A DNA stretch of 64,000 bases from Wickerhamiella versatilis (taxonomy: Eukaryota), in contig JAQOWU010000007.1 of the NCBI GenBank assembly GCA_030867685.1, forward strand, positions 1,674,001 to 1,738,000. The letters are read 5' to 3'. Shown here one piece after another: positions 3,444 to 63,835 of this stretch; positions within the stretch are counted from its first letter, which is position 1, and the number at the start of each line of letters is the position of its first letter. The position numbers and the translations under genes are program-made. Below the pieces are notes generated by a model that ran no database searches, was not told the origin of the DNA, and was given only the letters and a program-made list of their open reading frames with translations.

Positions 3444-4532
3444 ATGGGTCGACGACAAGAGTACATTGCTCGTGTACGGTACCATAACCAGCTACCGCCT
3501 CCACCATGTGCACCAAAGGCACTTAAATATGGCAATGATATCTCACATTTGCTTACCGCAGCCAGCCTCAGCTCCGTTGTCTTTCGATCTGAGCTCCAGC
3601 CAGAACCGGATATGGACCTCGGTGTACCTCTCGACCTCACAGTGATACCAGAGGCGTGGGAAACGAATGAAGGCGGATACCGACCGGAAGCTCCCGAGGA
3701 ATTAGAACCAGAAGATGAGGAGCTAATGGTCGAGCCCAACGCTGGTGCCAAAGCAAGTTCCACAGTAGCCGCATCAAAGGCATTCCTAAACAAAAAGGCC
3801 ATACATATGGGACCTAGTCTTGCAGCCCCCAGCGCGTCTGCGAAAGCAAAACTTCCAACTGATAATGCTGTATTTGACTCCGAAGCTGCTCTACGTAAGA
3901 TAGAGCAAACATTTGATGATGCACACGTTCCACTGGGTGAGCTAAAGCACCCTAAGAATCCAAAGGCCAAGGCTGTGAAGGCCTTGCCGGTATTCCCTGA
4001 TATTCAGCAGTTCGACTTGACGCACCTCAATGTACGGCTCGTTGGTAGTGCAAGCCTGCGGAATCTACCCCAGCCAATACCACGGGATAGCCTAGAGGCC
4101 TCGCTTTTCCAGCATGCACAACGAGGCGAGAATGAGTGGATGGGATTCTTTGTGCCAAATTCGGGAGAAGAGGCAGAGCGACTGCGCAAAAGACTTACCG
4201 ACACCCGTGATACATTGCCTGCACAGGATCAGGAAGCGGAAGAGGCAGAAATCTTCGAGCTGCATAAAATTCAAGATAATGAAATCGATTTTGCGTTGCA
4301 CAAGGCTGACTTGGAGGAGATATCAATCAGTATTGACGATGAGGCGGCCTATTACATTCCTATTGCAGGCCGTACGAATTTAAAGAGGAGAAGAGTTGAC
4401 CCAGCGCTCAAGGACATTCTGAGGAGTGCCGAAGTTGACAGAATAGACCTAAGCTTACGGGAATCGAATCCGGAAGAGTCAATTGAGCGAGACAAGGCAA
4501 GATCACGATACGACCCTGTTACATATGGCTAA
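3444..4532 (+). CDS. PAF1: RNA polymerase II-associated factor Paf1
   Basis: RQEYIARVRYHNQLPPPPCAPK N-terminus, DLGVPLDL, IEQTF...LKHP, AYYIPI...LKRRR. Confidence 0.93.
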   Translation: MGRRQEYIARVRYHNQLPPPPCAPKALKYGNDISHLLTAASLSSVVFRSELQPEPDMDLGVPLDLTVIPEAWETNEGGYRPEAPEELEPEDEELMVEPNAGAKASSTVAASKAFLNKKAIHMGPSLAAPSASAKAKLPTDNAVFDSEAALRKIEQTFDDAHVPLGELKHPKNPKAKAVKALPVFPDIQQFDLTHLNVRLVGSASLRNLPQPIPRDSLEASLFQHAQRGENEWMGFFVPNSGEEAERLRKRLTDTRDTLPAQDQEAEEAEIFELHKIQDNEIDFALHKADLEEISISIDDEAAYYIPIAGRTNLKRRRVDPALKDILRSAEVDRIDLSLRESNPEESIERDKARSRYDPVTYG

Positions 4533-4678: not shown

Positions 4679-5554
4679 ATGGAAACATCTCTCTTGCAAG
4701 AACTACGACATTATTTAATGGAGACGCATCTGCCTTCTGGTAACTGTTCGGATCCCTACTGTGCAGGAACACGGTCGGATCTCGCTCTGGCTGCTAAGGT
4801 AGGCCAGTCCCTCCTCACACAACTAATGCAAGCGGAAGAACGATTCAAGAAGGCAGAGCATGGACATGAGAAGGAGCTGTCGCTTTTGCGGCATGCGAAT
4901 TACCGGCTCACCCTAGAGAATGAAAATTTGGAAGCCGAACAGCAGCATCTTTATCTTACACTTCAAAACCATGACGATGAAATCAAAGAGCTGAATGAGG
5001 AGCTTCGCCAAGCCAAACGAGATGCTTCCCGATTTAGACGGGCACTTGACTCGGCGCGATCATTGGAAGAGCAGGTAACTCTACTTGAGAAAATGCAAGA
5101 AGCAACCCAACGAGAGCTTGATAATAATCTGGTTGCAACTAGGCTGCCTAGCTCTAGGGTGACTGAATTGGCGGCAGAATCCATAGCGAGCAGGGTCCAC
5201 AGAATGGCTGCAGACCTGGGTCCCCCTTCCGGCTCCGATCCCGACGAAACGCTGGTAGAGGATTCAAGCTTCACAATATCGTCACCAATATATTCAAAGC
5301 CAAAACTTCAACGATCAATGTCTCATGAAAGCGTGCTTGCACCAATGGCCGAGGATATCACCCGTGATACGTCGATACAGAGACCACAGACTTCTAAGGC
5401 TGTCGCTGGACTCAGTGGACATAGTGCGACCGCAAAACCCCTCTCAAAATACCCAATTAATGCTCGTGACCATCTATTGTCTAATGTAAAGGGCCAACCG
5501 CATGCAGATAAATGGTCTTTCGTTCCATTTCGTCGTTCAGCACGAATGGTGTAA
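4679..5554 (+). CDS. Uncharacterised coiled-coil protein with CC1-box-like motif (DLALAAKVGQSLL)
   Basis: 291-aa ORF from ATG 4679: heptad-rich E/Q/L/R segment of about 115 aa, then an S/P-rich tail containing RSMSHES. Confidence 0.7.
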   Translation: METSLLQELRHYLMETHLPSGNCSDPYCAGTRSDLALAAKVGQSLLTQLMQAEERFKKAEHGHEKELSLLRHANYRLTLENENLEAEQQHLYLTLQNHDDEIKELNEELRQAKRDASRFRRALDSARSLEEQVTLLEKMQEATQRELDNNLVATRLPSSRVTELAAESIASRVHRMAADLGPPSGSDPDETLVEDSSFTISSPIYSKPKLQRSMSHESVLAPMAEDITRDTSIQRPQTSKAVAGLSGHSATAKPLSKYPINARDHLLSNVKGQPHADKWSFVPFRRSARMV

Positions 5555-5678: not shown

Positions 5679-7871
5679 TTAGTTATCCCAATTCCTTCGG
5701 AAAATATTACCCCTAACATGTGAAGTCTTCACAACAGGTCTCGGAGGTTTGAGTTGAGGCATCACACGCCTCGGTCGGGATTCTACTGGCTGGCGTGGTC
5801 TACTTGTTGATTTCAGGATTTGGACAGTTTTTGGTCCAGAGGGTGCGAGCTCCGACTGAATTCGCGCGACAGACCTACGAGGAATATTAGGTACTTCTGG
5901 GGGTGGTGCAGCTTTAAGAGACGGGAGTGGCCTAGCTCTTGGCAATACAACGCTCTCTTCCATAGAAAGTGGGCTATCATCTGTAGTTGACATATGATCA
6001 GCCGGCTCTATAAATTTAAGAGATTCATGAATGCTGGCAACGTCCACTGCCTTTGAAACAGCAGCCTTTGGCTTTTTCACAAAGCTGCCTGTGCAGCTCT
6101 CAAAGAATGCACGATTTTTCGGGTTGGCGCTTATTCTTGTCGGTTTGATGAAACTCCTGTCGTTATCTTTCTTCAGAGAATGGACTTCATGCTTTCTCTT
6201 TCGAGATTCTTGTTGAACATAATCGACAAGATGTTCTACAGCACTTTCACTGAGTTGCTTCGCCGGCTTGTCATTATCACTGGGAGGGTTAATATTATCG
6301 TTAACTCCACCAACCTCAGTAGCGTCACCTACCCCATCTCCAGGAGATTTTGGAGACTGCGCTTCGTCCTCCTCGCTTTCGTCCGAATCACTTGAATCAT
6401 CTAGTACCATTCTCTTCTTGCTGGGGGAAGATCCCTTGGCTTGTGAACCAACATTAACTTGAGTGGGTGGGGTTTGTTCGTTCTCCGACTCATTTATATC
6501 TTCTGACCGATCCTTCTCACGTTCCTGCCTGATAAGGAAGAGCCTTCTAACCTCTGCAAGTTCCTGGGATCCTGTAAGACCCATCTCCTTGATTTTGTTC
6601 AAGTCTTCCTGAGTTTCATCGCAGTGTCTCCTTGAGTGCGACTGCTCTTGTGATTGCTCTTGTGACTTCCCTTCTTTTGAAGGAGTGGGTTGCGTTGGTG
6701 TCTCTAACTCCAAGTCTTTTTCCTGAGAAGAGTCCTGGAAGATAGGAGGCGGTTGGTCCTTATCTGCATCGGCATTGGCGTCTGCTCCTGCTACTGCTCC
6801 TGCCTCCGCATTGTGACTGTGGGGCAATGTATCCGGTTCAGAAACATCCGGTACATATTTGTCTGCTTCAGATCTAGCCAAATCAGTGGTAACCTGGCGC
6901 TCATGTTCAAGCAGCGATTTCATATTACGAGGGGGGTTCGGTGGCTGTAAATTTAGCTCCCGCCTTGCCCTCGACTGATCTCTCTGCTTTGACAATAATT
7001 GGCTCGTTAGATCACCAACATTCATAGGCATTTCATTTTGTTGCCCAAGAATAACTTGATCACGCTGAGCAACATTCATACGGGAGGCCTCTGTCGATGG
7101 AACAATCTCTAGGTCATCACCACTAGAATCCGAATCACTTTCTAAACCTTCGGCCATCGATCTGGGAGGAGAACTAGCGACGTAACTCGTCAAATGCTGC
7201 CATTGGGGTAATCGAGGAGTAATAGGTTTGGCCTTTTTAGGCGTTGGTGGAGGTGTCCTTTGGCCGAGAAGGGATGCAAATCCTGAAACTGTTGCTTCAG
7301 CGACTGTGTGTCGCGACACATGTACACCAATTTCTCGCTCTAGCCTATGGTTGACACGTTCGATATCTTCATTTGCCTTATGAGATTCGTAGGAAGTCGG
7401 TCTTTCAGTTACTTCTTCTGGTCGGTCAATGCCAGCATCCGCATACACCCTATCACGTTCATTTAAAGGGGCTTCCAAGTGGTCCGATTCGGCATCTGAA
7501 AGCCATAGACCTGCATCATTTGCACTTGGCGCACTCTCAGACTGCTTAGGCCTAGTTGCTTTGGGACCAGGAATGAGTTTCTCCCCATGGCCAACAGCTT
7601 CACCGTAAGAATCATCAGAGCCCTTCTTCCCCGGGCCATGGCTCAAAAAATCATCATTATTTTCATCAATTAAGTCGTCAATATCCTCCTCTTCATCCGC
7701 ATCTTCATCTTCGTTTCCCTGGTTTTCATTTAATGGACCTGCGACTTGGCTTTGAGTTACTCTCCGTTGTATAAACTCATCATAATCGAAGTCCTCCTCA
7801 TCCAAATTTTCATCATCCTCATCAAGTTGTTTCAATAAATCATCCAGTCTACCAAAATTAGCCAAAGTCAT
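5679..7871 (-). CDS. MRC1: Probable replication checkpoint mediator Mrc1/Claspin-like
   Basis: Acidic, disordered 730 aa with clustered SQ/TQ sites; NPKNRAFFES resembles the Mrc1 C-terminal motif; MCB/SCB boxes lie immediately upstream. Confidence 0.6.
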   Translation of the reverse strand: MTLANFGRLDDLLKQLDEDDENLDEEDFDYDEFIQRRVTQSQVAGPLNENQGNEDEDADEEEDIDDLIDENNDDFLSHGPGKKGSDDSYGEAVGHGEKLIPGPKATRPKQSESAPSANDAGLWLSDAESDHLEAPLNERDRVYADAGIDRPEEVTERPTSYESHKANEDIERVNHRLEREIGVHVSRHTVAEATVSGFASLLGQRTPPPTPKKAKPITPRLPQWQHLTSYVASSPPRSMAEGLESDSDSSGDDLEIVPSTEASRMNVAQRDQVILGQQNEMPMNVGDLTSQLLSKQRDQSRARRELNLQPPNPPRNMKSLLEHERQVTTDLARSEADKYVPDVSEPDTLPHSHNAEAGAVAGADANADADKDQPPPIFQDSSQEKDLELETPTQPTPSKEGKSQEQSQEQSHSRRHCDETQEDLNKIKEMGLTGSQELAEVRRLFLIRQEREKDRSEDINESENEQTPPTQVNVGSQAKGSSPSKKRMVLDDSSDSDESEEDEAQSPKSPGDGVGDATEVGGVNDNINPPSDNDKPAKQLSESAVEHLVDYVQQESRKRKHEVHSLKKDNDRSFIKPTRISANPKNRAFFESCTGSFVKKPKAAVSKAVDVASIHESLKFIEPADHMSTTDDSPLSMEESVVLPRARPLPSLKAAPPPEVPNIPRRSVARIQSELAPSGPKTVQILKSTSRPRQPVESRPRRVMPQLKPPRPVVKTSHVRGNIFRRNWDN

Positions 7872-8435: not shown

Positions 8436-11400
8436 ATGTCGGGCGCTCAGTTTCCGTACTCCTCGGCTCCGCTAAGGGCGGTAAAGGAGGTTCAGTTCGG
8501 TCTCCTGAGCCCCGACGAGATTAAGGCACTGAGCGTTGCAAGGATCGAGTACCCTGAGACCATGGACGAAACGAAGATGCGTCCACGGATAGGGGGCCTC
8601 TCAGATCCGCGCCTCGGTTCTATTGATCGTAATTTCAAATGTCAAACATGTGGTGAGGGCATGGCAGACTGTCCCGGACATTTCGGGCATATAGAGCTTG
8701 CCAAGCCCGTTTTCCATATTGGCTTTGTTACCAAAATAAAAAAAATACTTGAGGCTGTTTGTGTGCATTGCGGCAAGCTCAAAGCTGATGAAAGTAACCC
8801 CGAATTTGCACAGGCCATTAAAATTCGCAACCCAAAGCGTAGGTTTGCAAAAGTTTGGGAAATATGTAAAAAGAAGATGGTATGCGAGGCCGACGTGTAT
8901 GGCGATGAAGGTACAAAGAAAACCGTACACGGAGGGTGTGGCAATGCCCAGCCGCTTATCCGTCGGGATGGGTTGCGTTTATTGGGTCAATGGAAGAAGG
9001 ACAAGTCTCGTGGTGATCAGCCCGAAAAACGATACCTTACACCTTCAGAAATCCTGAATGTGTTCAAACACATAAGTGACAAGGACATTACAAACCTTGG
9101 GCTCGATGTAGACTTTGCACGGCCAGAATGGCTTCTCGTGACGGTCCTGCCGGTTCCACCTCCACCTGTTCGTCCAAGTATTGCCATGAATGAGACGGCT
9201 CGTGGCGAGGACGATTTGACCTACAAGCTTGCAGATATAATTAAGGCAAACGCCAATGTGCAACGTTGTGATACGGAAGGTGCACCAGCACATGTTGTGA
9301 ATGAATTTGAGATGTTGTTACAGTATCACGTTGCCACTTACATGGATAATAACATTGCTGGTCAACCACAAGCATTGCAGAAGTCGGGCCGCCCTGTGAA
9401 ATCTATTCGAGCAAGGTTGAAGGGCAAGGAGGGCCGTCTGCGTGGTAATCTCATGGGTAAACGAGTTAATTTCAGTGCCCGTACTGTCATTACAGGTGAC
9501 CCTAACATTGAGCTTGATCAGGTAGGTGTTCCCAAGTCTATTGCTCGCACTCTCACGTATCCAGAGGCGGTGACTCCATACAATATTCACCGACTTACCC
9601 GTTTTGTTCGAAACGGTCCAAATGAACATCCTGGTGCTAAATACATCATTAGGGACACTGGTGAGCGTATAGACCTGCGTTATCATAAGCGTATCGGTGA
9701 TATTGCGCTGCAATATGGCTGGAAGGTTGAGCGTCATTTAATGGATGATGATCCGGTTCTGTTCAATCGTCAACCCAGTCTGCACAAGATGAGTATGATG
9801 GCTCATCGTGTTAAAGTAATGCCTTATTCCACATTCCGGCTCAATCTTTCTGTGACGAGCCCTTATAATGCAGATTTCGATGGTGATGAGATGAACTTGC
9901 ACGTTCCTCAGTCAGAAGAAACTCGAGCTGAGTTGAGCCAGCTAGCAGCCGTGCCGTTGCAAATTGTCTCACCTCAGTCCAATAAGCCCGTAATGGGAAT
10001 TGTTCAAGACACCCTTTGTGGTATTCGTAAGTTGACTCTCCGAGACACCTTTTTAAACTACGAAATGGTTCAAAATATACTGTTCTGGATTCCAGAATGG
10101 GATGGTGTAGTCCCACCACCAGCAATCTTGAAACCTAAGCCACTATGGACGGGTAAGCAGATGGTGTCGATGACTATCCCTTCAGGTATTTTCATGCAGC
10201 GTTTTGATGACAGTAACCCTGTAACTTCGCCCAAAGACAATGGTATGCTTGTATACAAAGGCAGAGTAATGTATGGCGTTGTTGACAAGAAAACAGTGGG
10301 TTCATCAGCAGGGGGTCTCATTCATACGATTTTTAGGGAGAAGGGACCCTATGTTTGTGCCCAATTTGTTGGCAACATTCAGAAAGTTGTAAATTACTGG
10401 CTTCTTCACAATGGATTTTCTATTGGTATAGGCGATACTATTGCAGATGCTGGGACGGTAGCTAATGTAACCAACACTATCGCCGCTGCAAAAGAGAGGG
10501 TTGAGGACATTACAAAACGTGCCTATGCCAATAAGTTGAATCCAGAACCAGGAATGACATTGCGTGAGTCTTTCGAGCATGCTGTTATCTTGGAGTTGAA
10601 TGGAGCACGTGATACTTCGGGTAGAGAGGCTGAGAACTCACTACAAGACGGCAACAATGTTAAACAAATGGTAAGTGCTGGGTCCAAGGGCTCATTCATT
10701 AACATTTCGCAGATGTCAGCGTGCGTTGGACAGCAAATTGTAGAGGGTAAGCGTATTGGTTTTGGCTTTGCTGATAGAAGTCTCCCTCATTTCACACGTG
10801 ATGATTACAGTCCTGAATCGAAGGGATTTATCGAGAATTCGTACTTGCGTGGACTCAGTCCCCAGGAGTTCTTTTTCCATGCCATGGCTGGTCGTGAAGG
10901 TTTGATTGATACTGCAGTGAAGACTGCAGAGACAGGTTATATTCAAAGACGGCTTGTCAAGGCATTGGAAGATATTATGGTTCAGTATGATGGCTCTGCA
11001 CGTAACTCTCTGGGTGATATTGTTCAGTTTATTTATGGTGAAGATGGCCTGGACGGTGCTCAGGTTGAAAGACAGTCCCTCGATACTATTCCAGGGTCGA
11101 ATGATTCATTCGAGAAGCGTTATCGTGTTGATTTGCTCAATGGTGATAGATTGCGCATTGAGTCGATGGCTGATATTGTTGGTGATCTGGATGTACAGCG
11201 TCTGCTCGATGGAGAATGGCAAAGGCTGTGTGATGACAGACATATGTTAAGAACATTTGTCTTTACCAACGGAGATCACGACAAGCCGCTGCCTGTCAAC
11301 CTTCGCCGCGTTATCCAGAATGCTCAACAAATTTTCAACGTCGACCAGAATCATGTTTCAGACTTAACAGTTCCTGAAATTGTGGATGGTGTGCAACAGC

Positions 11401-13640
11401 TATGCAACAAGCTGGTAGTCGTTCGTGGTGAAGGTGAGACGCTAGACAATGCCCAGGACAATGCAACCACTCTCTTCAGATGCCTTGTTCGCTCACGTCT
11501 AGCAACAAAGAGAATAACAGAAGAGTATCGTCTGACACGCAATGCATTTGAGTGGGTTCTAGGAGATGTTGAGTCGCAGTTCATGCGTAGTCTTGCCCAT
11601 CCAGGTGAGATGGTAGGTGTTGTTGCTGCTCAATCGATTGGTGAGCCAGCAACGCAAATGACACTCAATACTTTCCACTATGCTGGTGTGTCGTCTAAAA
11701 ATGTAACATTGGGTGTACCACGTTTGAAGGAGATTCTCAATGTTGCTAAGACAATTAAGACACCTGCTCTTACGGTTTATCTTCAACCGGAGGTAGCAGG
11801 TGATATTGAACAGGCTAAGGTAGTACAAAGTGCGATCGAACATACGTCACTCAAAGGTGTTACTGCTGTCACAGAGATTTATTACGATCCAGATCCTCGT
11901 ACTACAGTTATTGAAGAGGATCTTGACACTGTTGAGGCTTACTTCTCCATTCCAGATGAACAGGTAGAGGCAACCTTATACATGCAGTCGCCTTGGTTGT
12001 TACGTTTAGAGCTTGATCGTGCTAAGATGCTTGATAAACAACTAACAATGTCTCAAGTTGCCGAGACGATCAGCCAGAGTTTCGCCGGTGATCTTTTCGT
12101 CATGTGGTCTGAAGATAATGCTGAAAAACTGGTGATCCGATGCAGAGTTGTTCGTGATCCGAAGACACTTGACGAAGAAGAGGCTCAAGAAGAGGATCAA
12201 ATGGTGAAACACGTTGAACAGTACATGCTTGACAACATAAGTCTTCGTGGTATTCCAGCAATAACCCGTGTCTTTATGATGGAGGACAAACAAAGGATTA
12301 TCGATCAAAAGACAGGAGACTACGAAACTAAAATGGAGTGGATCCTCGAGACCGATGGTATTAATCTAGGCGAGGTTATGACTGTTCAAGGTGTAGACGC
12401 GCACCGGACATACTCAAACTCTTTCGTTGAGATTTTAGGAGTTCTGGGTATCGAAGCCACTCGAACTGCTTTGTTCCGAGAACTGTCCAAGGTTATTGAA
12501 TTTGATGGTTCTTATGTCAATTATCGCCACATGGCATTGCTTGTGGATGTAATGACATCCCGAGGACATCTGATGGCAATCACACGTCATGGTATCAATC
12601 GTGCAGACACTGGTGCGTTGATGCGCTGCTCCTTCGAGGAAACAGTAGAAATTTTACTTGAAGCCGCAGCAACAGCAGAACTTGATGATTGTCGCGGAGT
12701 CTCAGAGAACATCATGTTGGGCCAGATGGCTCCCCTTGGAACCGGTGCGTTTGAGGTTTATCTTGACGACAAGACTCTTGCCTCGATGCCTGCACCAGAA
12801 ATTGGTGCCATTGATGGGTCTGCGACGCCATATGAGTCGTTTACGCCTGCGCATGATTCCGCGGCAGGTGATGGTGGTGATGCTGCTTTCTCTCCTCTGG
12901 TGGCATCTGGTATGGGTGATGCAGTTACCCGTGGTGGTTTCACTGAATACGGCAGTGCGGCATCTCCATTTACGGCAGCATCTCCGGCCTGGGGTGGCGC
13001 ATCTCCGGCTTTCGGAGCCGCGTCGCCTGCATTTGGAGCTGCATCGCCTGCATTCGGGGCCGCTTCTCCCGCATTTGGGGCCGCTTCTCCTGCCTTTGGA
13101 GCCGCTTCTCCTGCCTTTGGAGCTGCCTCCCCTGCCTACCAGCCATCTTCACCTTCGTTTGGTGGTGTTTCGCCTGCTTATGCGCCATCGCCTGTGTATG
13201 ACCCAGCAGCTTCGGTGTCGCCTAGTTATAGTGCGAGTGGAGCTTACCAGGCTGTCTCACCTAGTTTCAGTCCTACAAGCCCAACATCGCAAAGCCCCTC
13301 GTCGCCGCGTTATTCTCCTGGTGGTTCGCCTACGTCCCCTGCATATGGTGGTTATAGCCCAACATCACCGGCTGCGAATTATAGCCCAACATCACCGGCT
13401 GCAAATTATAGCCCGACTTCACCAGCCGGCTACTCCCCTACGTCGCCTGCTGGTTACTCCCCTACGTCGCCTGCTGCTAATTACAGCCCGACTTCTCCTG
13501 CGGGTTATTCTCCTACTTCACCAGCAGCTTCTTACAGTCCAACCTCTCCAACTTCTTATTCACCAACGTCGCCGGCCGGGCAGTATTCACCAACATCTCC
13601 CCGACCTCCGGCCTCTCCAGAATATAATCCAGATGCGTAA
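8436..13640 (+). CDS. RPB1: RNA polymerase II largest subunit
   Basis: CQTC/CPGHFGH zinc sites, NADFDGD catalytic motif, [14 protein letters not shown]-terminal SP-repeat domain. Confidence 0.99.
13011..13136 (+). repeat. Coding tandem repeat, 6 x 21 bp (FGAASPA), proximal RPB1 CTD
   Basis: Six consecutive FGAASPA units with synonymous codon variation. Confidence 0.95.
13353..13601 (+). repeat. Coding tandem repeat, 10 x YSPTSP cores with 24/27-bp period, distal RPB1 CTD
   Basis: Units [19 protein letters not shown]; Tyr-to-Tyr spacing 9,9,8,8,9,8,9,8,9. Confidence 0.95.
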
Positions 13641-13839
13641 AATTAAGTGCTTTAACAGCTATATGTCTTTTCTATGGCTAGGAGCTTTTTATCTTGGGTT
13701 TTTAGTCAAATCACCAATTAAAACCTTAGAAATAACTTAACAGAGATCTTATTGATTGCTTTCCCACGATGCAAAATAGTTAAAAATTAATGGGGATTTG
13801 ATTAGACAAAAGGTCTGATGATACTGTAGTGAATGCAAG

Positions 13840-15363
13840 TCAGTGCCTCCGTCTGAGATCTGTTGCTGGTAATGTGGATGGGTTATGCTGCGGAGCCGGT
13901 GTCTCTTTCTCACCAAGCTGTCGTAAAAGACTAGCCCGTTCAGCTGCGTTCTCATCGAAATAGCTCACTTCGGTTAACGGAGGTCTCTCACCTTGGTTTA
14001 AATCGGGAAGTGAAGAGGACGGTGACGCCCCTGACGTAGTGGATTGTGGTGGCGGGCGCGGACCACGACCATCCAATGCATGTTCTTCGCGTATGGGCTG
14101 TATTTGGCCTTTCGCCGCGGACTCCCAAAGCCAGTCGATGGTTACAGCAGGTACACGCCATTGGACAGCGAAACTAAGCTTTCTTGCTCCCTTGTTTGCG
14201 ATAAGAATATCCCTATCTGTAGTAAATGCCTCCTCATGTGTCGCCCCAAGAAGGTGTAAGAGCATCTGCACATGACGAAGCTCTACTGTGGTAAATCCCG
14301 ATACACAAGCACGTAACCCTACGAAACCAGGCGTAGGTTGTCTCCACACTGGTTGTGACCATTTGTCGTCCAATGCAAGTTGCTTTAGATGAAGCGTACG
14401 TTCAATTGCCCATTCTGTAATGAGTTTTGCACCAGGAGGTACCTGTGGTGGTCTTCGTGGTTTCTCACTACTTACGAGAAGGTAGTGCGGCTGAGAAGAC
14501 TGCTGCGCACCATTCGAGCTAAGAACACGAGTAATCACTCGCTCTTGTGCGGAATTAAACCCATACCAGGCAAATGTGATGTTTGATAGTATACCCTTTG
14601 CCAAAACTGGCTCCGAACGGGCAGGCTGCTCGTCCGGCTCAACTATATTGGTGATCGACCTTTTCCGTGAGGCATTTGTTATTTTATCCCATGAGTCTGA
14701 GTGGGCTGCAAGTGAACGTTTACGTGTAGCTGCTGCCACAGGCGCGGCGGCAGTTGCTAAGGCATCCTCAAATGTATATCTTTTGGGATCCAGCGCGGCC
14801 TGTGACCTTACCGAGTCATTGACCCACCGAGGTCCAGCAATAGATGTCCCCCACATCCTCGCATGCTCATATTTTCTGCCCTGCGGCTTTGGGACTACTA
14901 AAACATCACAATTACGAGTAAGAAGCTGTTCAACCTTTCCCCCCAGGCTCTCAATAAAAGCAGTTAATTTAGCTCTTTCTGTGGAATCAAATCCACTGAG
15001 ACATACTAAGAGATTTTCAAATACATCTAACTTTTCAGCGTTAAAAGCTAGTGAGGGTTTCACGTCGTCTCTTCCAGAGAGCCAATTTGACCATACACGT
15101 TCAACCGTTGACGGGGATACTAACACTGTATCTGGTAAAAAATTGTCAATGACTTGGTTGTATATTGGGCCAAATCGCCGGCCGACAACAAGGTATGATG
15201 GGGCAGTGGTTCCAAGCTCGGATTTTATAGTTGCACCCATTTCTATAAAAAGGTCGGCAACACGCGACGCTACTTCTGGAGAAACATCGCTCATCATTAC
15301 ATTTTTGAGAGCTAGAGGACGTTGGCTATCCAAAGATTCGGGACCATTGACGCCAATCGCCAT
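13840..15363 (-). CDS. DPB11: Multi-BRCT replication initiation/checkpoint protein Dpb11/Cut5/TopBP1
   Basis: Four BRCT-like units: FENLLVCLSGF...ESLGG...GRKYEHARMW...WVNDS; FVGLRACVSGF...LLGA...KLSFAVQWRVPAVTIDWLWES. Confidence 0.8.
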   Translation of the reverse strand: MAIGVNGPESLDSQRPLALKNVMMSDVSPEVASRVADLFIEMGATIKSELGTTAPSYLVVGRRFGPIYNQVIDNFLPDTVLVSPSTVERVWSNWLSGRDDVKPSLAFNAEKLDVFENLLVCLSGFDSTERAKLTAFIESLGGKVEQLLTRNCDVLVVPKPQGRKYEHARMWGTSIAGPRWVNDSVRSQAALDPKRYTFEDALATAAAPVAAATRKRSLAAHSDSWDKITNASRKRSITNIVEPDEQPARSEPVLAKGILSNITFAWYGFNSAQERVITRVLSSNGAQQSSQPHYLLVSSEKPRRPPQVPPGAKLITEWAIERTLHLKQLALDDKWSQPVWRQPTPGFVGLRACVSGFTTVELRHVQMLLHLLGATHEEAFTTDRDILIANKGARKLSFAVQWRVPAVTIDWLWESAAKGQIQPIREEHALDGRGPRPPPQSTTSGASPSSSLPDLNQGERPPLTEVSYFDENAAERASLLRQLGEKETPAPQHNPSTLPATDLRRRH

Positions 15364-19879: not shown

Positions 19880-20926
19880 ATGACCGACTTTGTTCGCATC
19901 CAAGTATTTGGCTCGCATTTTGAGGTCACATCCCGATACTCTGATCTGGTATTAGTCGGTATGGGCGCCTTCGGGCTGGTCTGTTCTGCAACAGATACTC
20001 TTACGGGTCAACAGGTGGCAGTCAAAAAAATAATGAAACCTTTCAGTACAGCAAGCCTAGCCAAAAGAACATATCGTGAACTTAAGCTTCTAAAGCACCT
20101 CAGGCATGAGAATGTGATATCACTAAGTGATATCTTCATCTCTCCGCTTGAAGACATTTACTTTGTGACCGAGCTACTCGGTACAGATCTGCATCAACTT
20201 CTTCTCAGTCGTCCTTTAGATCCTATGATCATCAAGTATTTTTTTTATCAGATCATGCGTGCTCTTAAATATGTGCATTCTGCTAATGTGGTCCATCGCG
20301 ATTTGAAACCGAGTAATATTTTAGTGAACGAGAATTGTGATATCAAGATATGTGATTTTGGCCTTGCTCGTATTCAAGATCCACAGATGACTGGCTATGT
20401 CTCTACCAGGCATTACCGTGCACCGGAAATTATGTTGAGTTGGCAACGGTACGATACAGAGGTAGATATCTGGTCAGCTGGATGCATTCTGGCCGAAATG
20501 ATTTTGGGAAAACCACTTTTCCCTGGCCAAGACCATATACATCAATTCAGTATTATCACGGAGTTACTGGGGACTCCACCTGAAGAGGTCATATCCGCAA
20601 TTATGAGTGAAAACACGCTTCGTTTTGTACGCTCCCTTCCGCGCAGGCCACGAGTACCATTAGCGACTAAGTTCGCTGGTTGTGAGCCTGAAGTGATAGA
20701 TTTACTTGAAAAGATGTTGATATTTGATCCGCGGGCCCGCATCACGGCAGCAGAGTCTTTGGCCCACCCATATCTCGCTCAGTATCATGAGCCAAGTGAT
20801 GAGCCAGTGGCTGAAGAACCATTTGATTGGTCTTTCAATGGCGCAGACTTGCCAGTAGATACTTGGAAAGTGATGATGTACTCAGAAATCTTAGATTTCC
20901 ATAATGTTGGGCCTGTTGATGAATGA
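19880..20926 (+). CDS. HOG1: Stress-activated MAP kinase Hog1/Sty1
   Basis: [46 protein letters not shown] (TGY motif), [13 protein letters not shown]. Confidence 0.98.
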
Positions 20927-47334: not shown

Positions 47335-48501
47335 TCAAGCAGCTTTGATTTTTTTGCGGCTATTGCCATCTGCCGAGGCCACTGGCCTTCTATTGCTCGC
47401 AGGTATTGACATATTCGTGGCGCTCGTGATTCTTCGTGTGGGATAGCGGATATGTACTCCCTCGAAGCAATTGTCCATAGAGACATTTTGGAAAAACGGT
47501 TGCTTGAGGGCATCTTCGGCAGAAATGCGCTTATCTGGATTGTAGATGAGCATCTGTCTCAAGATGTCAAGCTCAGCAGGGTTATTGTTGTTATTGACTG
47601 TGCGGTACCATTGTTCCAGTCTATTAGGATATATGCGCATTGACTGAAGCTCGTGGTACTCAGGGCAGGCTGTTATCGATCTCCATGTGTTAGTGGAGGG
47701 TGTGCCAAGTATTTCCAGTAGCTTCTGCATCTGGCCACGTTGGAAGGGCATGCGTTTTCTATTATCCATCCTGGCCTCTTCACCCTTGAACATTGGCTTT
47801 AACGCAAGCATTTCTCCCATAATGCACCCAACGGCCCAGATATCCATAGTAGGCGTGTAATGACGACACCCTAGCAACAACTCAGGAGCCCGGTACCATA
47901 TGGTAACGACCACTCTATCTCCAGAGTAGAGACTTTGGAGGGGATCCCGAAATATGCGAGCAAGGCCCAGGTCACCAATTTTTACACGGCCACCAGCTGT
48001 GATCATAATGTTTGCCGGCTTGAGGTCTCGGTGTAGCACCCAATTGCGATGGAGATAGGCCACTCCACTCAAAACTTGGCCTAATACAGACCTTACCAGA
48101 TTGTCAGGTAGCTTGCGAGGCTCATTTTGGCAATGATATTGTATCAGTTGCAAAAGATCGTGCTCCGCATACTCCAACACAAGGTAGATACTCTTATCTT
48201 CCAAGACTGATTCCAGCAGCCGAACAATGTTTTCATGATTCAAATCACGAGATAACGCTATCTCACGTATGGCACTTTGGCTAATCCCGGTGTAATAAGT
48301 TGGCTCAATCTCCTTGTCTGCCTTAAACTTCTTGATAGCCACGAGCCGACCTTCATTCTGGGCCTTATACACTCGACCATACGTACCTGCAGCTATATAG
48401 CCCAATATTTGGTACTTTTTTATTGGGTCCACGTGTTCCTTCTGCCTTCTCGCTTTATATCTGGCCATGGGATCCACCATTTTCGACGCACCCCCGTGCA
48501 T
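47335..48501 (-). CDS. SSN3: Mediator kinase Cdk8/Srb10
   Basis: GYIAAGTYGRVYKA, TGISQSAIRE, EYAEHDLLQ, LYSGDRVVVTIWYRAPELLLG, FKGEEA. Start uncertain (ATGs at 48501, 48480, 48468). Confidence 0.95.
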   Translation of the reverse strand: MHGGASKMVDPMARYKARRQKEHVDPIKKYQILGYIAAGTYGRVYKAQNEGRLVAIKKFKADKEIEPTYYTGISQSAIREIALSRDLNHENIVRLLESVLEDKSIYLVLEYAEHDLLQLIQYHCQNEPRKLPDNLVRSVLGQVLSGVAYLHRNWVLHRDLKPANIMITAGGRVKIGDLGLARIFRDPLQSLYSGDRVVVTIWYRAPELLLGCRHYTPTMDIWAVGCIMGEMLALKPMFKGEEARMDNRKRMPFQRGQMQKLLEILGTPSTNTWRSITACPEYHELQSMRIYPNRLEQWYRTVNNNNNPAELDILRQMLIYNPDKRISAEDALKQPFFQNVSMDNCFEGVHIRYPTRRITSATNMSIPASNRRPVASADGNSRKKIKAA

Positions 48502-48521: not shown

Positions 48522-49133
48522 ATGGCTGCCGAAGATGAGTTGAAGACACATATTGAGACTATTCTCGAACTTTCCAAAGTTTTAGAATCGGGGACTGATA
48601 AGAATAGCTCACAGGAGTCTGCATCACTAATAGCTATCGAACGTGCAGTATTCAAGGCACGGGAAATAGTGCGCGGTCAGGAAGAGCAGACGGCGGCAGA
48701 GTTGAATGACTTGAAATTAACACAGGATAAAATAAGAAATTTGAAAGAGGTCATCGATTATCATCAGCGATATATCAACTACTGTGAAAGTCAGCATCGC
48801 TTAGATTATTGGATTGATCATGCCAATGAAACTCCTCAGGGGGGTAGCACAAAAGAAGTGGTCCAGAAAAAGCTTCAGCAGGAAGTTGATGAAAGAACCA
48901 GAACAGCAGAGGAATTGGGTGACTTACGTGCGAGGGCTTTCAAGCTTCGAGTAAGGCATACCGATCTTGTGAAGGCCTTAGATTCGCGGAGGATCACTGA
49001 AGTTGCCGGTACTCTAAATAGTAAGGCACGTCTAGTGGGAAATATTCTGAGAGATATACAAAGGGATTTTAGACTTCCTGAGGAAGTTCTTATGAAAGAT
49101 GCTCAAGAAGTTCCCGAAGAAGCATCCGCGTAA
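48522..49133 (+). CDS. Coiled-coil protein, possibly THO complex Thoc5/Fmip-like
   Basis: 203-aa helical ORF; IRNL.....YHQRYINYCES and KLQQEVDER....EEL loosely match fungal Thoc5-like proteins. Confidence 0.5.
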   Translation: MAAEDELKTHIETILELSKVLESGTDKNSSQESASLIAIERAVFKAREIVRGQEEQTAAELNDLKLTQDKIRNLKEVIDYHQRYINYCESQHRLDYWIDHANETPQGGSTKEVVQKKLQQEVDERTRTAEELGDLRARAFKLRVRHTDLVKALDSRRITEVAGTLNSKARLVGNILRDIQRDFRLPEEVLMKDAQEVPEEASA

Positions 49134-62878: not shown

Positions 62879-63835
62879 ATGGTGGAGGATACGGAGGAGA
62901 TGTGTCCTATTTGCCGCTCTAGTAGCTATCTCAACCCCGAAATGAGATTTCTGGTAAATCCTGAATGCTATCATAAAATGTGCGAGTCCTGCGTTGATAG
63001 GATATTTAGCGGTGGTCCATCACCATGCCCTTTTCGTGGCTGTGGCAAGATTCTCCGAAAATCTCGGTTCAAACGTCAGGTTTTTGATGACCTTAAAGTG
63101 GAACGAGAAGTTGACGTGCGCCAGCGTATATGTAGGGTGTTCAATCGGCCTGAGGACTCATTTGCCAGTGAACGAGAGTACAATGACTATCTCGAGAAGA
63201 TTGAAGATTTGGTGTTTCGCATAGCTGGTGGTGGTAGGGATGCGGAGGATGCTGAAAAAGAAGTCCAGGAATATGAAAAGGTGCATAAAAAGGATATATT
63301 GGACAATGCCTTGCGAATGAAGCAAGATAGCCAACGGGAAGAGGAAATTCATAATTTAGAGGTTGAACGTCAGCGCCGCCTGAGAATGATGGCGATTGAG
63401 TTGCAAAAGCAGGAGGACGAGTTGCAAAGGCGTCAAGAGGAAGAGGCTGTCTCGGCCTTAGCTGAAGGAAGGGACGCACAGCTAGCTGTGCGGGAAGCTG
63501 CTGATCGCGCAAAGCAACAGATAGATTTACTTCGCACTCAGTATGAAATGGAACTGAAACGTGTTGTTCAAGCCCCTCAACGTTCCGCAACAGCGGCATC
63601 TGCGGCACAAAAGCCACAGACACCATTCACCCCATTTGCTGGAGACCGTGGCTTTCCTGAGCCATTCACTTTGCAAAACTCCTACTTTGATCCTTTGGCT
63701 GATATGGGTATGAAGGATCCGACAGTAAGGGCAGGTGGGTTCACTGCCCGGGAGTCTGAAAAAGAGGCATTGACCTTAGCATATTGGGGGATGGACATTG
63801 ACATTCAGTCGGAAAAGTCGGTTGCTGCCGTATAA
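62879..63835 (+). CDS. TFB3: TFIIH/CAK assembly factor Tfb3/MAT1
   Basis: RING CPICRS..YLNP...NPECYHKMCESCVDRIF..GP.PCP..GC.KILRK; VEREVDVR; YNDYLE. Confidence 0.97.
   Translation: MVEDTEEMCPICRSSSYLNPEMRFLVNPECYHKMCESCVDRIFSGGPSPCPFRGCGKILRKSRFKRQVFDDLKVEREVDVRQRICRVFNRPEDSFASEREYNDYLEKIEDLVFRIAGGGRDAEDAEKEVQEYEKVHKKDILDNALRMKQDSQREEEIHNLEVERQRRLRMMAIELQKQEDELQRRQEEEAVSALAEGRDAQLAVREAADRAKQQIDLLRTQYEMELKRVVQAPQRSATAASAAQKPQTPFTPFAGDRGFPEPFTLQNSYFDPLADMGMKDPTVRAGGFTARESEKEALTLAYWGMDIDIQSEKSVAAV

Follow-up and report, generated by a model that had tools for sequence, protein, structure and literature searches.

The RPB1 (RPO21) gene lying in the 64,000-nucleotide stretch of Wickerhamiella versatilis DNA considered here (assembly GCA_030867685.1, contig JAQOWU010000007.1, positions 1,674,001 to 1,738,000 of the forward strand; the whole stretch is termed the window) very probably encodes a working, lineage-specific RNA polymerase II (Pol II) carboxy-terminal domain (CTD) that is composed of two parts: a proximal array of Ser5-Pro6-only heptads and, behind it, a distal array of full-letter repeats of eight or nine residues. 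Few repeat registers in eukaryotes are conserved as strongly as the heptad period of the Pol II CTD. Here, in a culturable budding yeast that stands near canonical species, the letters of the repeat are kept, the register is abandoned and this state is held by selection.

The gene is a single intronless open reading frame (ORF) of 1734 amino acids (aa), in which all seven Rpb1 domains are matched, in order, by Pfam models (PF04997, PF00623, PF04983, PF05000, PF04998, PF04992 and PF04990; expectation values, E, from 6e-33 to 3e-115). The Pfam model of the CTD repeat, PF05001 (RNA_pol_Rpb1_R), scores only 12.0 bits (E 0.28), that is below its curated cut-off of 20.3, and is missing from the precomputed Pfam list of this protein. 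After the conserved GGFTEYG linker the tail is divided into four zones (Table 1).

The distal array was noticed in a preliminary description made from the sequence alone, and its coordinates (13353-13601), the count of ten YSPTSP cores and their Tyr-Tyr spacings of 9,9,8,8,9,8,9,8,9 were all reproduced. Position 7 is occupied by Ala in eight units, Thr in one and Arg in one; Ser is never found there and YSPTSPS occurs 0 times in the whole protein, both of which had been claimed before and hold on recounting. Since a spacer of one or two residues follows the replaced Ser7, the cores recur every eight or nine residues, as in YSPTSPAAN and YSPTSPAG (three copies each) and in the final YSPTSPRPP. 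Tyr1, Pro3, Ser5 and Pro6 are invariant across the ten units, a 7-residue interval between full cores is seen in 0 of 10 cases, and the decapeptide-type unit [YF]xPxSPx[YF]xP is found 0 times in the protein, against 16-21 times in each of the five nearest relatives and 25 times in S. cerevisiae. At the level of DNA the ten 18-nt cores differ from one another by 5.3 of 18 nt on average, always synonymously (the earlier remark that codons vary under an invariant core was correct), and the codons of Ser2 are of AGY type in five cores and of TCN type in the other five. Two pairs of adjacent cores (1 and 2, 4 and 5) are identical, which suggests a recent duplication, and Tandem Repeats Finder (TRF) reports periods of 27, 24 and 51 nt. 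The synonymous differences, the identical neighbours and these periods together imply that the array evolves by duplication of 8-, 9- and 17-codon units while the protein is constrained; tandem duplication of such units both lengthens and homogenises it.

The preliminary description regarded the CTD as built from 8-9-mers, which is right for the distal half and wrong for the CTD as a whole, because the proximal half is in heptad register. In the proximal array twelve aromatic residues stand exactly 7 apart (aa 1505, 1512 ... 1582), in the order Y, F, W, six times F, Y, F and a closing Y1582, and they mark out 11 units of the form aromatic-x3-S-P-x with one SP each, so that SP dipeptides lie 7 apart nine times running. 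When these units are written as F1-G2-A3-A4-S5-P6-A7, only the aromatic position and Ser5-Pro6 are seen to be kept. The array is expanded in comparison with all five nearest relatives, each of which has a single ASPAF-like motif at this place, and the copy number of ASPAFGA differs between strains: one 21-nt unit (window 13080) is absent from X12, a contig of a food-fermentation metagenome, and from the protein P0236 (1727 aa), a member of the same cluster as the window protein.

Table 1. Positions in the window of the RPB1 gene and of the zones of its tail.
Feature	Position	Strand	Basis
RPB1 (RPO21) coding sequence	8436..13640	+	ORF and translation, Pfam, tree with yeast RPB1s
Proximal CTD array, aa 1505-1581, 11 heptad-register units	12948..13178	+	Aromatic and SP spacing, synonymous strain differences
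Six perfect ASPAFGA (= FGAASPA) heptads	12999..13124	+	Motif count; TRF 21-nt period, 6.6 copies
Degenerate transition zone, aa 1582-1639, contains FSPTSPT	13179..13352	+	Irregular SP spacing
Distal array, aa 1640-1722, ten YSPTSP cores	13353..13601	+	Motif count, TRF, codon comparison
C-terminal tip of 12 residues and stop codon	13602..13640	+	Translation
RPB1 3′ untranslated region, transcript fading out	13641..13780	+	RNA depth

The CTD-bearing stretch of the gene, or a part of it, was present in 20 of the 24 listed public runs, with at least half of the sampled words in 17 (13 studies); for six of the run rows a flag marks the run as a potential source of the DNA, and these are hence not independent. 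Four runs were aligned to the stretch: an isolate contig (X1), the metagenome contig X12 and raw RNA-seq reads of two runs (X23 and X24). The isolate contig is identical over this stretch and may be the source of the DNA, while X12, which comes from a different study, spans the stretch and departs from it by 3 substitutions and a clean 21-nt deletion, through which one ASPAFGA unit outside the 8/9-mer array is lost. RNA-seq reads of 151 nt under the same species label aligned in numbers of 2326 (X23) and 2657 (X24), giving a summed depth of ~150-380 over 12400-13640 and of ~170-380 over both arrays (12948-13601), and in these reads no joints, and no indels at a frequency of at least 10%, were found. 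Past the stop codon the depth decays: it is ~150 in the bin ending at 13623 and has dropped to ~10 by position 13776, with molecule ends at 13711. These alignments mean that the array is transcribed as written and that no heptad array has been collapsed. That a canonical heptad array was merely mis-assembled is a practically negligible explanation, given that independent contigs from several studies carry the stretch, that X12 has only three substitutions and its single indel lies outside the 8/9-mer array, and that 151-nt reads tile it uninterrupted.

The RNA-seq strain differs from the window by 30 fixed differences in codons 1322-1734, and 30 of 30 are synonymous changes at third positions (the CTD holds 24 of them, the proximal array 10 and the distal array 9). 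Given 332 synonymous and 907 non-synonymous sites, neutrality would produce this outcome with a probability of 7e-18 overall, 6e-14 for the CTD, 5e-6 for the proximal array and 1e-5 for the distal one; the apparent synonymous divergence (dS) of the CTD parts is ~0.09-0.15. Three of the nine differences in the distal array sit in spacer codons (A8, A7, G8) and all of them are synonymous, so that the spacers too are free of amino-acid change. Within the 90% protein cluster, which has four members, differences are limited to aa 219, 424 and 1318 and a one-heptad indel, and the 8/9-mer array is invariant in 4 of 4. Both arrays, and the CTD as a whole, are under purifying selection, and the earlier suggestion of selection rather than decay was borne out. 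It is therefore very improbable that this RPB1 is a redundant copy with a drifting tail whose work is done by a second RPB1 with a canonical CTD: the ORF of 1734 aa is intact, all seven Rpb1 domains are in place, the RNA depth is high, non-synonymous differences number 0 of 30 and the branch length of the core is normal. In the best 120 of the 8000 candidates that were scored, a paralogue-like sister of this RPB1 was not found, nor were alternative junctions seen in the reads, and this yeast presumably has no second RPB1.

The origin of the two arrays was placed with the RPB1 core. Apart from the protein itself, the best matches were P0003 (80% identity), whose cluster contains Starmerella bacillaris, and P0006 (81%), together with Wickerhamiella sorbophila, P0005 and P0009. 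A careful maximum-likelihood tree was computed from 24 rows of the core without the CTD, and in it the window protein is sister, with support of 100/100, to a group of P0006 and the pair of S. bacillaris and P0009, and together they join W. sorbophila and P0005 (100/100); a quick tree had the same topology. With an end branch of 0.15, compared with the median of 0.13, the window protein shows no acceleration of the RPB1 core. When the CTDs of related yeasts were compared, as the preliminary description had advised, the window state differed from all five nearest relatives, which have 15-18 YSPTSPS each in strict heptads; since these five are canonical, the 8/9 register and the FGAASPA expansion were derived on the window lineage alone. 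The CTD was accordingly remodelled on its own lineage, sister to the S. bacillaris group, inside the Wickerhamiella/Starmerella clade. The composition of the tail was shifted only in part: SP (42 vs 45-49 in the relatives) and Tyr plus Phe (28 vs 28-30) are similar in number, Ala is much more frequent (47 vs 6-13) and Ser is less so (54 vs 67-83). A bias in GC content as the cause of the Ser to Ala shift was considered and is not evident, as the 58% GC of the CTD follows from its codons and the core has 43-49%. A 360-aa ORF in an alternative frame (12658-13740, +), that overlaps the CTD, is most likely a by-product of repetitive, stop-poor sequence.

Neither an intermediate nor a closer relative of this CTD was revealed by word, HMMER and JGI metagenome searches. 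A word search with aa 1500-1734 among proteins of near length returned only the identical P0002, the next match having 117 bits against 410 for self, and a search with aa 1590-1734 among shorter proteins gave 74 matches at E≤1e-10, the best of 94 bits and none near-identical. An exhaustive HMMER scan with aa 1620-1734 over 1.84 billion representatives (one protein per 50% cluster, so that close relatives are hidden) gave 117 matches at E≤0.001, not one of which reached 1e-30, and a JGI metagenome scan gave 17 loci, the best segments of which reach 41-77% identity, with no close relative among them. In a set of 234 RPB1-like proteins, which is biased toward sequences similar to the query, heptad-spaced cores are missing only from the window protein and its identical twin. 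Five or more cores are present in 74 of 116 proteins taken from the exhaustive scan, and of these P0306 alone is free of heptad spacing; among 251 proteins of at least 1400 aa, five or more cores without any decapeptide-like unit are found in the four members of the window cluster and in P0306. The latter is an RPB1-like protein of 1702 aa from a JGI metagenome with units of 8 and 11 residues, including YSPTSPAA, and without heptad spacing; in it, repeats of the PPAPYAPWEQPAAP type precede the 8/11-residue units. A published non-heptad CTD in Starmerella, Wickerhamiella or Saccharomycotina was not found in the literature searched, although surveys of CTD diversity and their supplements may list comparable cases, and literature matches that pair Starmerella with heptad appear, judging by titles and abstracts, to be unrelated in topic.

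Units of eight or nine residues are nonetheless not peculiar to this CTD. In the CTD of Cyanidiococcus yangmingshanensis YSPSSPNVA alternates with YSPSSPVA (9/8), Hondaea fermentalgiana and a relative of it have YSPSSPAAA and YSPSSPAQA, the metagenomic RPB1 P0350 has the unit YSPTSPAP, and the units of P0306 belong here as well. The CTDs of Cyanidiales and labyrinthulomycetes share with the window a YSPxSP core, Ala at position 7, a spacer of one or two residues and a period of 8-9; they differ from it in that 5-6 decapeptide-like pairs are retained in Cyanidiococcus and Hondaea, against 0 in the window protein. Since these lineages are unrelated and the yeast relatives of the window are canonical, the shared 8-9 register is a matter of convergence and not of family, and because the core is in all cases followed by Ala7 and a short spacer, it looks like a recurrent solution.

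How such a CTD may work has to be judged against genetics and structures from model yeasts. In S. pombe the essential letters are Tyr1 (replaceable by Phe), Pro3, Ser5 and Pro6, while Ser2, Thr4 and Ser7 are dispensable, and Ser5 is the only essential phospho-site, with Y1F, S2A, T4A and S7A all viable (PMC8051263). The functional unit defined by genetics in model yeasts is a diheptad or a decapeptide (YSPTSPSYSP), and disrupting it is lethal; a unit of decapeptide size is reported to be sufficient. The capping enzyme Pce1 of S. pombe binds S5p-P-S-Y-S-P-T-S5p, and the Candida enzyme Cgt1 binds T-S5p-P-S-Y-S-P at its site cds1 and P-S-Y-S-P-T-S5p-P at cds2, so the CTD is read differently by each capping enzyme (PMC4066402). 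Several of these data speak against a functional CTD in the register of the window. A single Ala inserted between every heptad is lethal in S. cerevisiae, as the preliminary description had stated, and in S. pombe too (PMC6548728), and with this lethality in both model yeasts, readers unchanged from them are not expected to cope. The epitope S5p-P-S-Y, read across the unit boundary by Cgt1 cds1 and Pce1 (PMC4066402), is absent here because Tyr lies one or two residues further away. Moreover, there are only 10-12 full cores, which is near the minimum tolerated by model yeasts (PMC8051263).

The within-unit epitope Y-S-P-T-S5-P is intact in the window CTD, which makes a mechanism of autonomous cores plausible and still leaves room for co-adaptation of readers. 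The letters essential in fission yeast stay inside each distal unit, the changes being at the Ser7 site and in the distance from one unit to the next. According to such a mechanism, each YSPTSP core would act as an autonomous phospho-acceptor and docking unit: the usual CTD kinases would phosphorylate Ser5 and Ser2, and epitopes within one unit (x-Y-S-P-T-S-P-A) would be bound by readers, with the spacer acting as a linker only. Cgt1 cds2 may be taken as a precedent for within-unit docking in a budding-yeast capping enzyme (PMC4066402). The convergent natural 8-9-mer CTDs show that registers of this kind can work.

A possible alternative, although it falls short of an even chance, is that, as the preliminary description held, the code itself was rewired, i.e., that the capping enzyme, Pcf11/Nrd1/Rtt103, the Set2 SRI domain, Ssu72 and Mediator have co-evolved to the 8-9 spacing or have lost their two-heptad contacts. 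Proteins with a CTD-interacting domain (CID), the Set2 SRI domain, Ssu72 and Mediator are readers of the CTD. Rewiring would account for the fact that a register lethal in two model yeasts is kept here by purifying selection, that the boundary epitope of Cgt1 cds1 and Pce1 is gone and that the decapeptide unit, with its 16-21 copies in each of the five nearest relatives, has fallen to 0. Yet capping enzymes already differ in how they read the CTD, and one site of a budding-yeast enzyme is within-unit, so the register may be tolerated without any co-adaptation; the core of RPB1 shows no acceleration; and the proximal heptad-register array offers an alternative to rewiring. Along the latter line one may think of a division of labour, in which the proximal array would serve functions that depend on 7-spacing and Ser5 phosphorylation (e.g., recruitment of the capping enzyme) and the distal 8/9-mers those of Ser2, Thr4 and Tyr1. 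The exact spacing of its twelve aromatics and the nine successive SP intervals of 7, its expansion relative to five relatives, its 10 of 10 synonymous differences and the status of Ser5 as the sole essential phospho-site in S. pombe (PMC8051263) are consistent with this proposal, which is nevertheless unlikely: the proximal units are without Pro3, whose loss from every repeat S. pombe does not tolerate (PMC8051263), the polymorphic copy number of ASPAFGA suggests a looser constraint, and the ASPAF motifs of relatives are ordinary linker sequence.

With rather more doubt than confidence, this yeast may further be put forward as a natural counter-example to the diheptad as the minimal functional unit, its only Pol II working with a CTD in which no two full repeats stand in heptad register, with the YSPxSPA-plus-spacer design having arisen independently at least four other times. 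If this is true, the capping enzyme, the CID termination factors, Set2 and Mediator read single cores of 6-7 residues or are re-fitted to the 8-9 spacing, and YSPxSPA plus spacer would be a second state in which the CTD code is stable. Which readers need two adjacent heptads? Is Ser7 dispensable, and does the valency of SP and aromatic residues outweigh the register? W. versatilis and S. bacillaris form a natural pair in which these questions can be put.

Other genes of the window include three that are related to the CTD, and these are the only ones there. At 3444-4532 (+), ~4 kb upstream of RPB1, lies a Paf1 homologue (PF03985, E 1e-52). A kinase of 388 aa (47335-48501, -) has as its only PDB match at E≤1e-75 Ssn3 of S. 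cerevisiae (Cdk8, the CTD kinase of Mediator; E 2e-117), but the long extension at the N terminus of that protein, which has 555 aa, is lacking. A 318-aa homologue of MAT1/Tfb3, which serves the TFIIH CTD kinase as its assembly factor, is encoded at 62879-63835 (+) and has a RING finger and a MAT1 domain, so that a part, at least, of the Ser5 kinase machinery exists and looks ordinary. By Pfam and PDB matches all three are ordinary. A protein of 507 aa with twin BRCT domains (PTCB-BRCT type; 13840-15363, -) faces the 3′ end of RPB1 in convergent orientation, with 200 nt between the ORFs, and a Hog1/p38-type MAP kinase (19880-20926, +) matches mammalian MAPK14 structures at E ~1e-119. For the ORFs at 736-2133 (-, 465 aa), 4679-5554 (+, 291 aa), 5679-7871 (-, 730 aa) and 48522-49133 (+, 203 aa) no Pfam family was matched at E≤1e-5.

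Among budding yeasts a parallel to the proximal half is offered by Trichomonascus ciferrii (P0052; Dipodascales) and P0063, in which the linker motif was expanded in parallel into (G)GASPAFG repeats and only 1-2 YSPTSPS are present; like the window protein they have few consensus repeats, and P0052 is likewise without PF05001 in its precomputed Pfam list. The CTD of T. ciferrii, unlike that of the window, has an irregular distal part with 7-8 decapeptide-like pairs and no regular 8/9-mer array. The CTDs of polar and halophilic fungi resemble that of the window in being off-consensus with invariant SP motifs; however, they vary at positions 1, 4 and 7 and keep ~24-28 heptads, while the window keeps the letters and changes the register, and even such heptad-based divergent CTDs complemented S. 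cerevisiae only partly (PMC9451162). The canonical yeast CTD (S. cerevisiae, S. pombe, S. bacillaris, W. sorbophila) belongs to the same protein, likewise follows the GGFTEYG linker and shares the YSPTSP core and similar numbers of SP and aromatic residues, but differs in heptad spacing, in Ser7 and in YSPxSPxYSP, the Ala content of the window being four to eight times higher. Formally alike in design to the distal array is the engineered (YSPTSPS+Ala)n of S. cerevisiae and S. pombe, where one or two extra residues are likewise placed between the cores: that form is lethal (PMC6548728), whereas the form found in the window is expressed and conserved.

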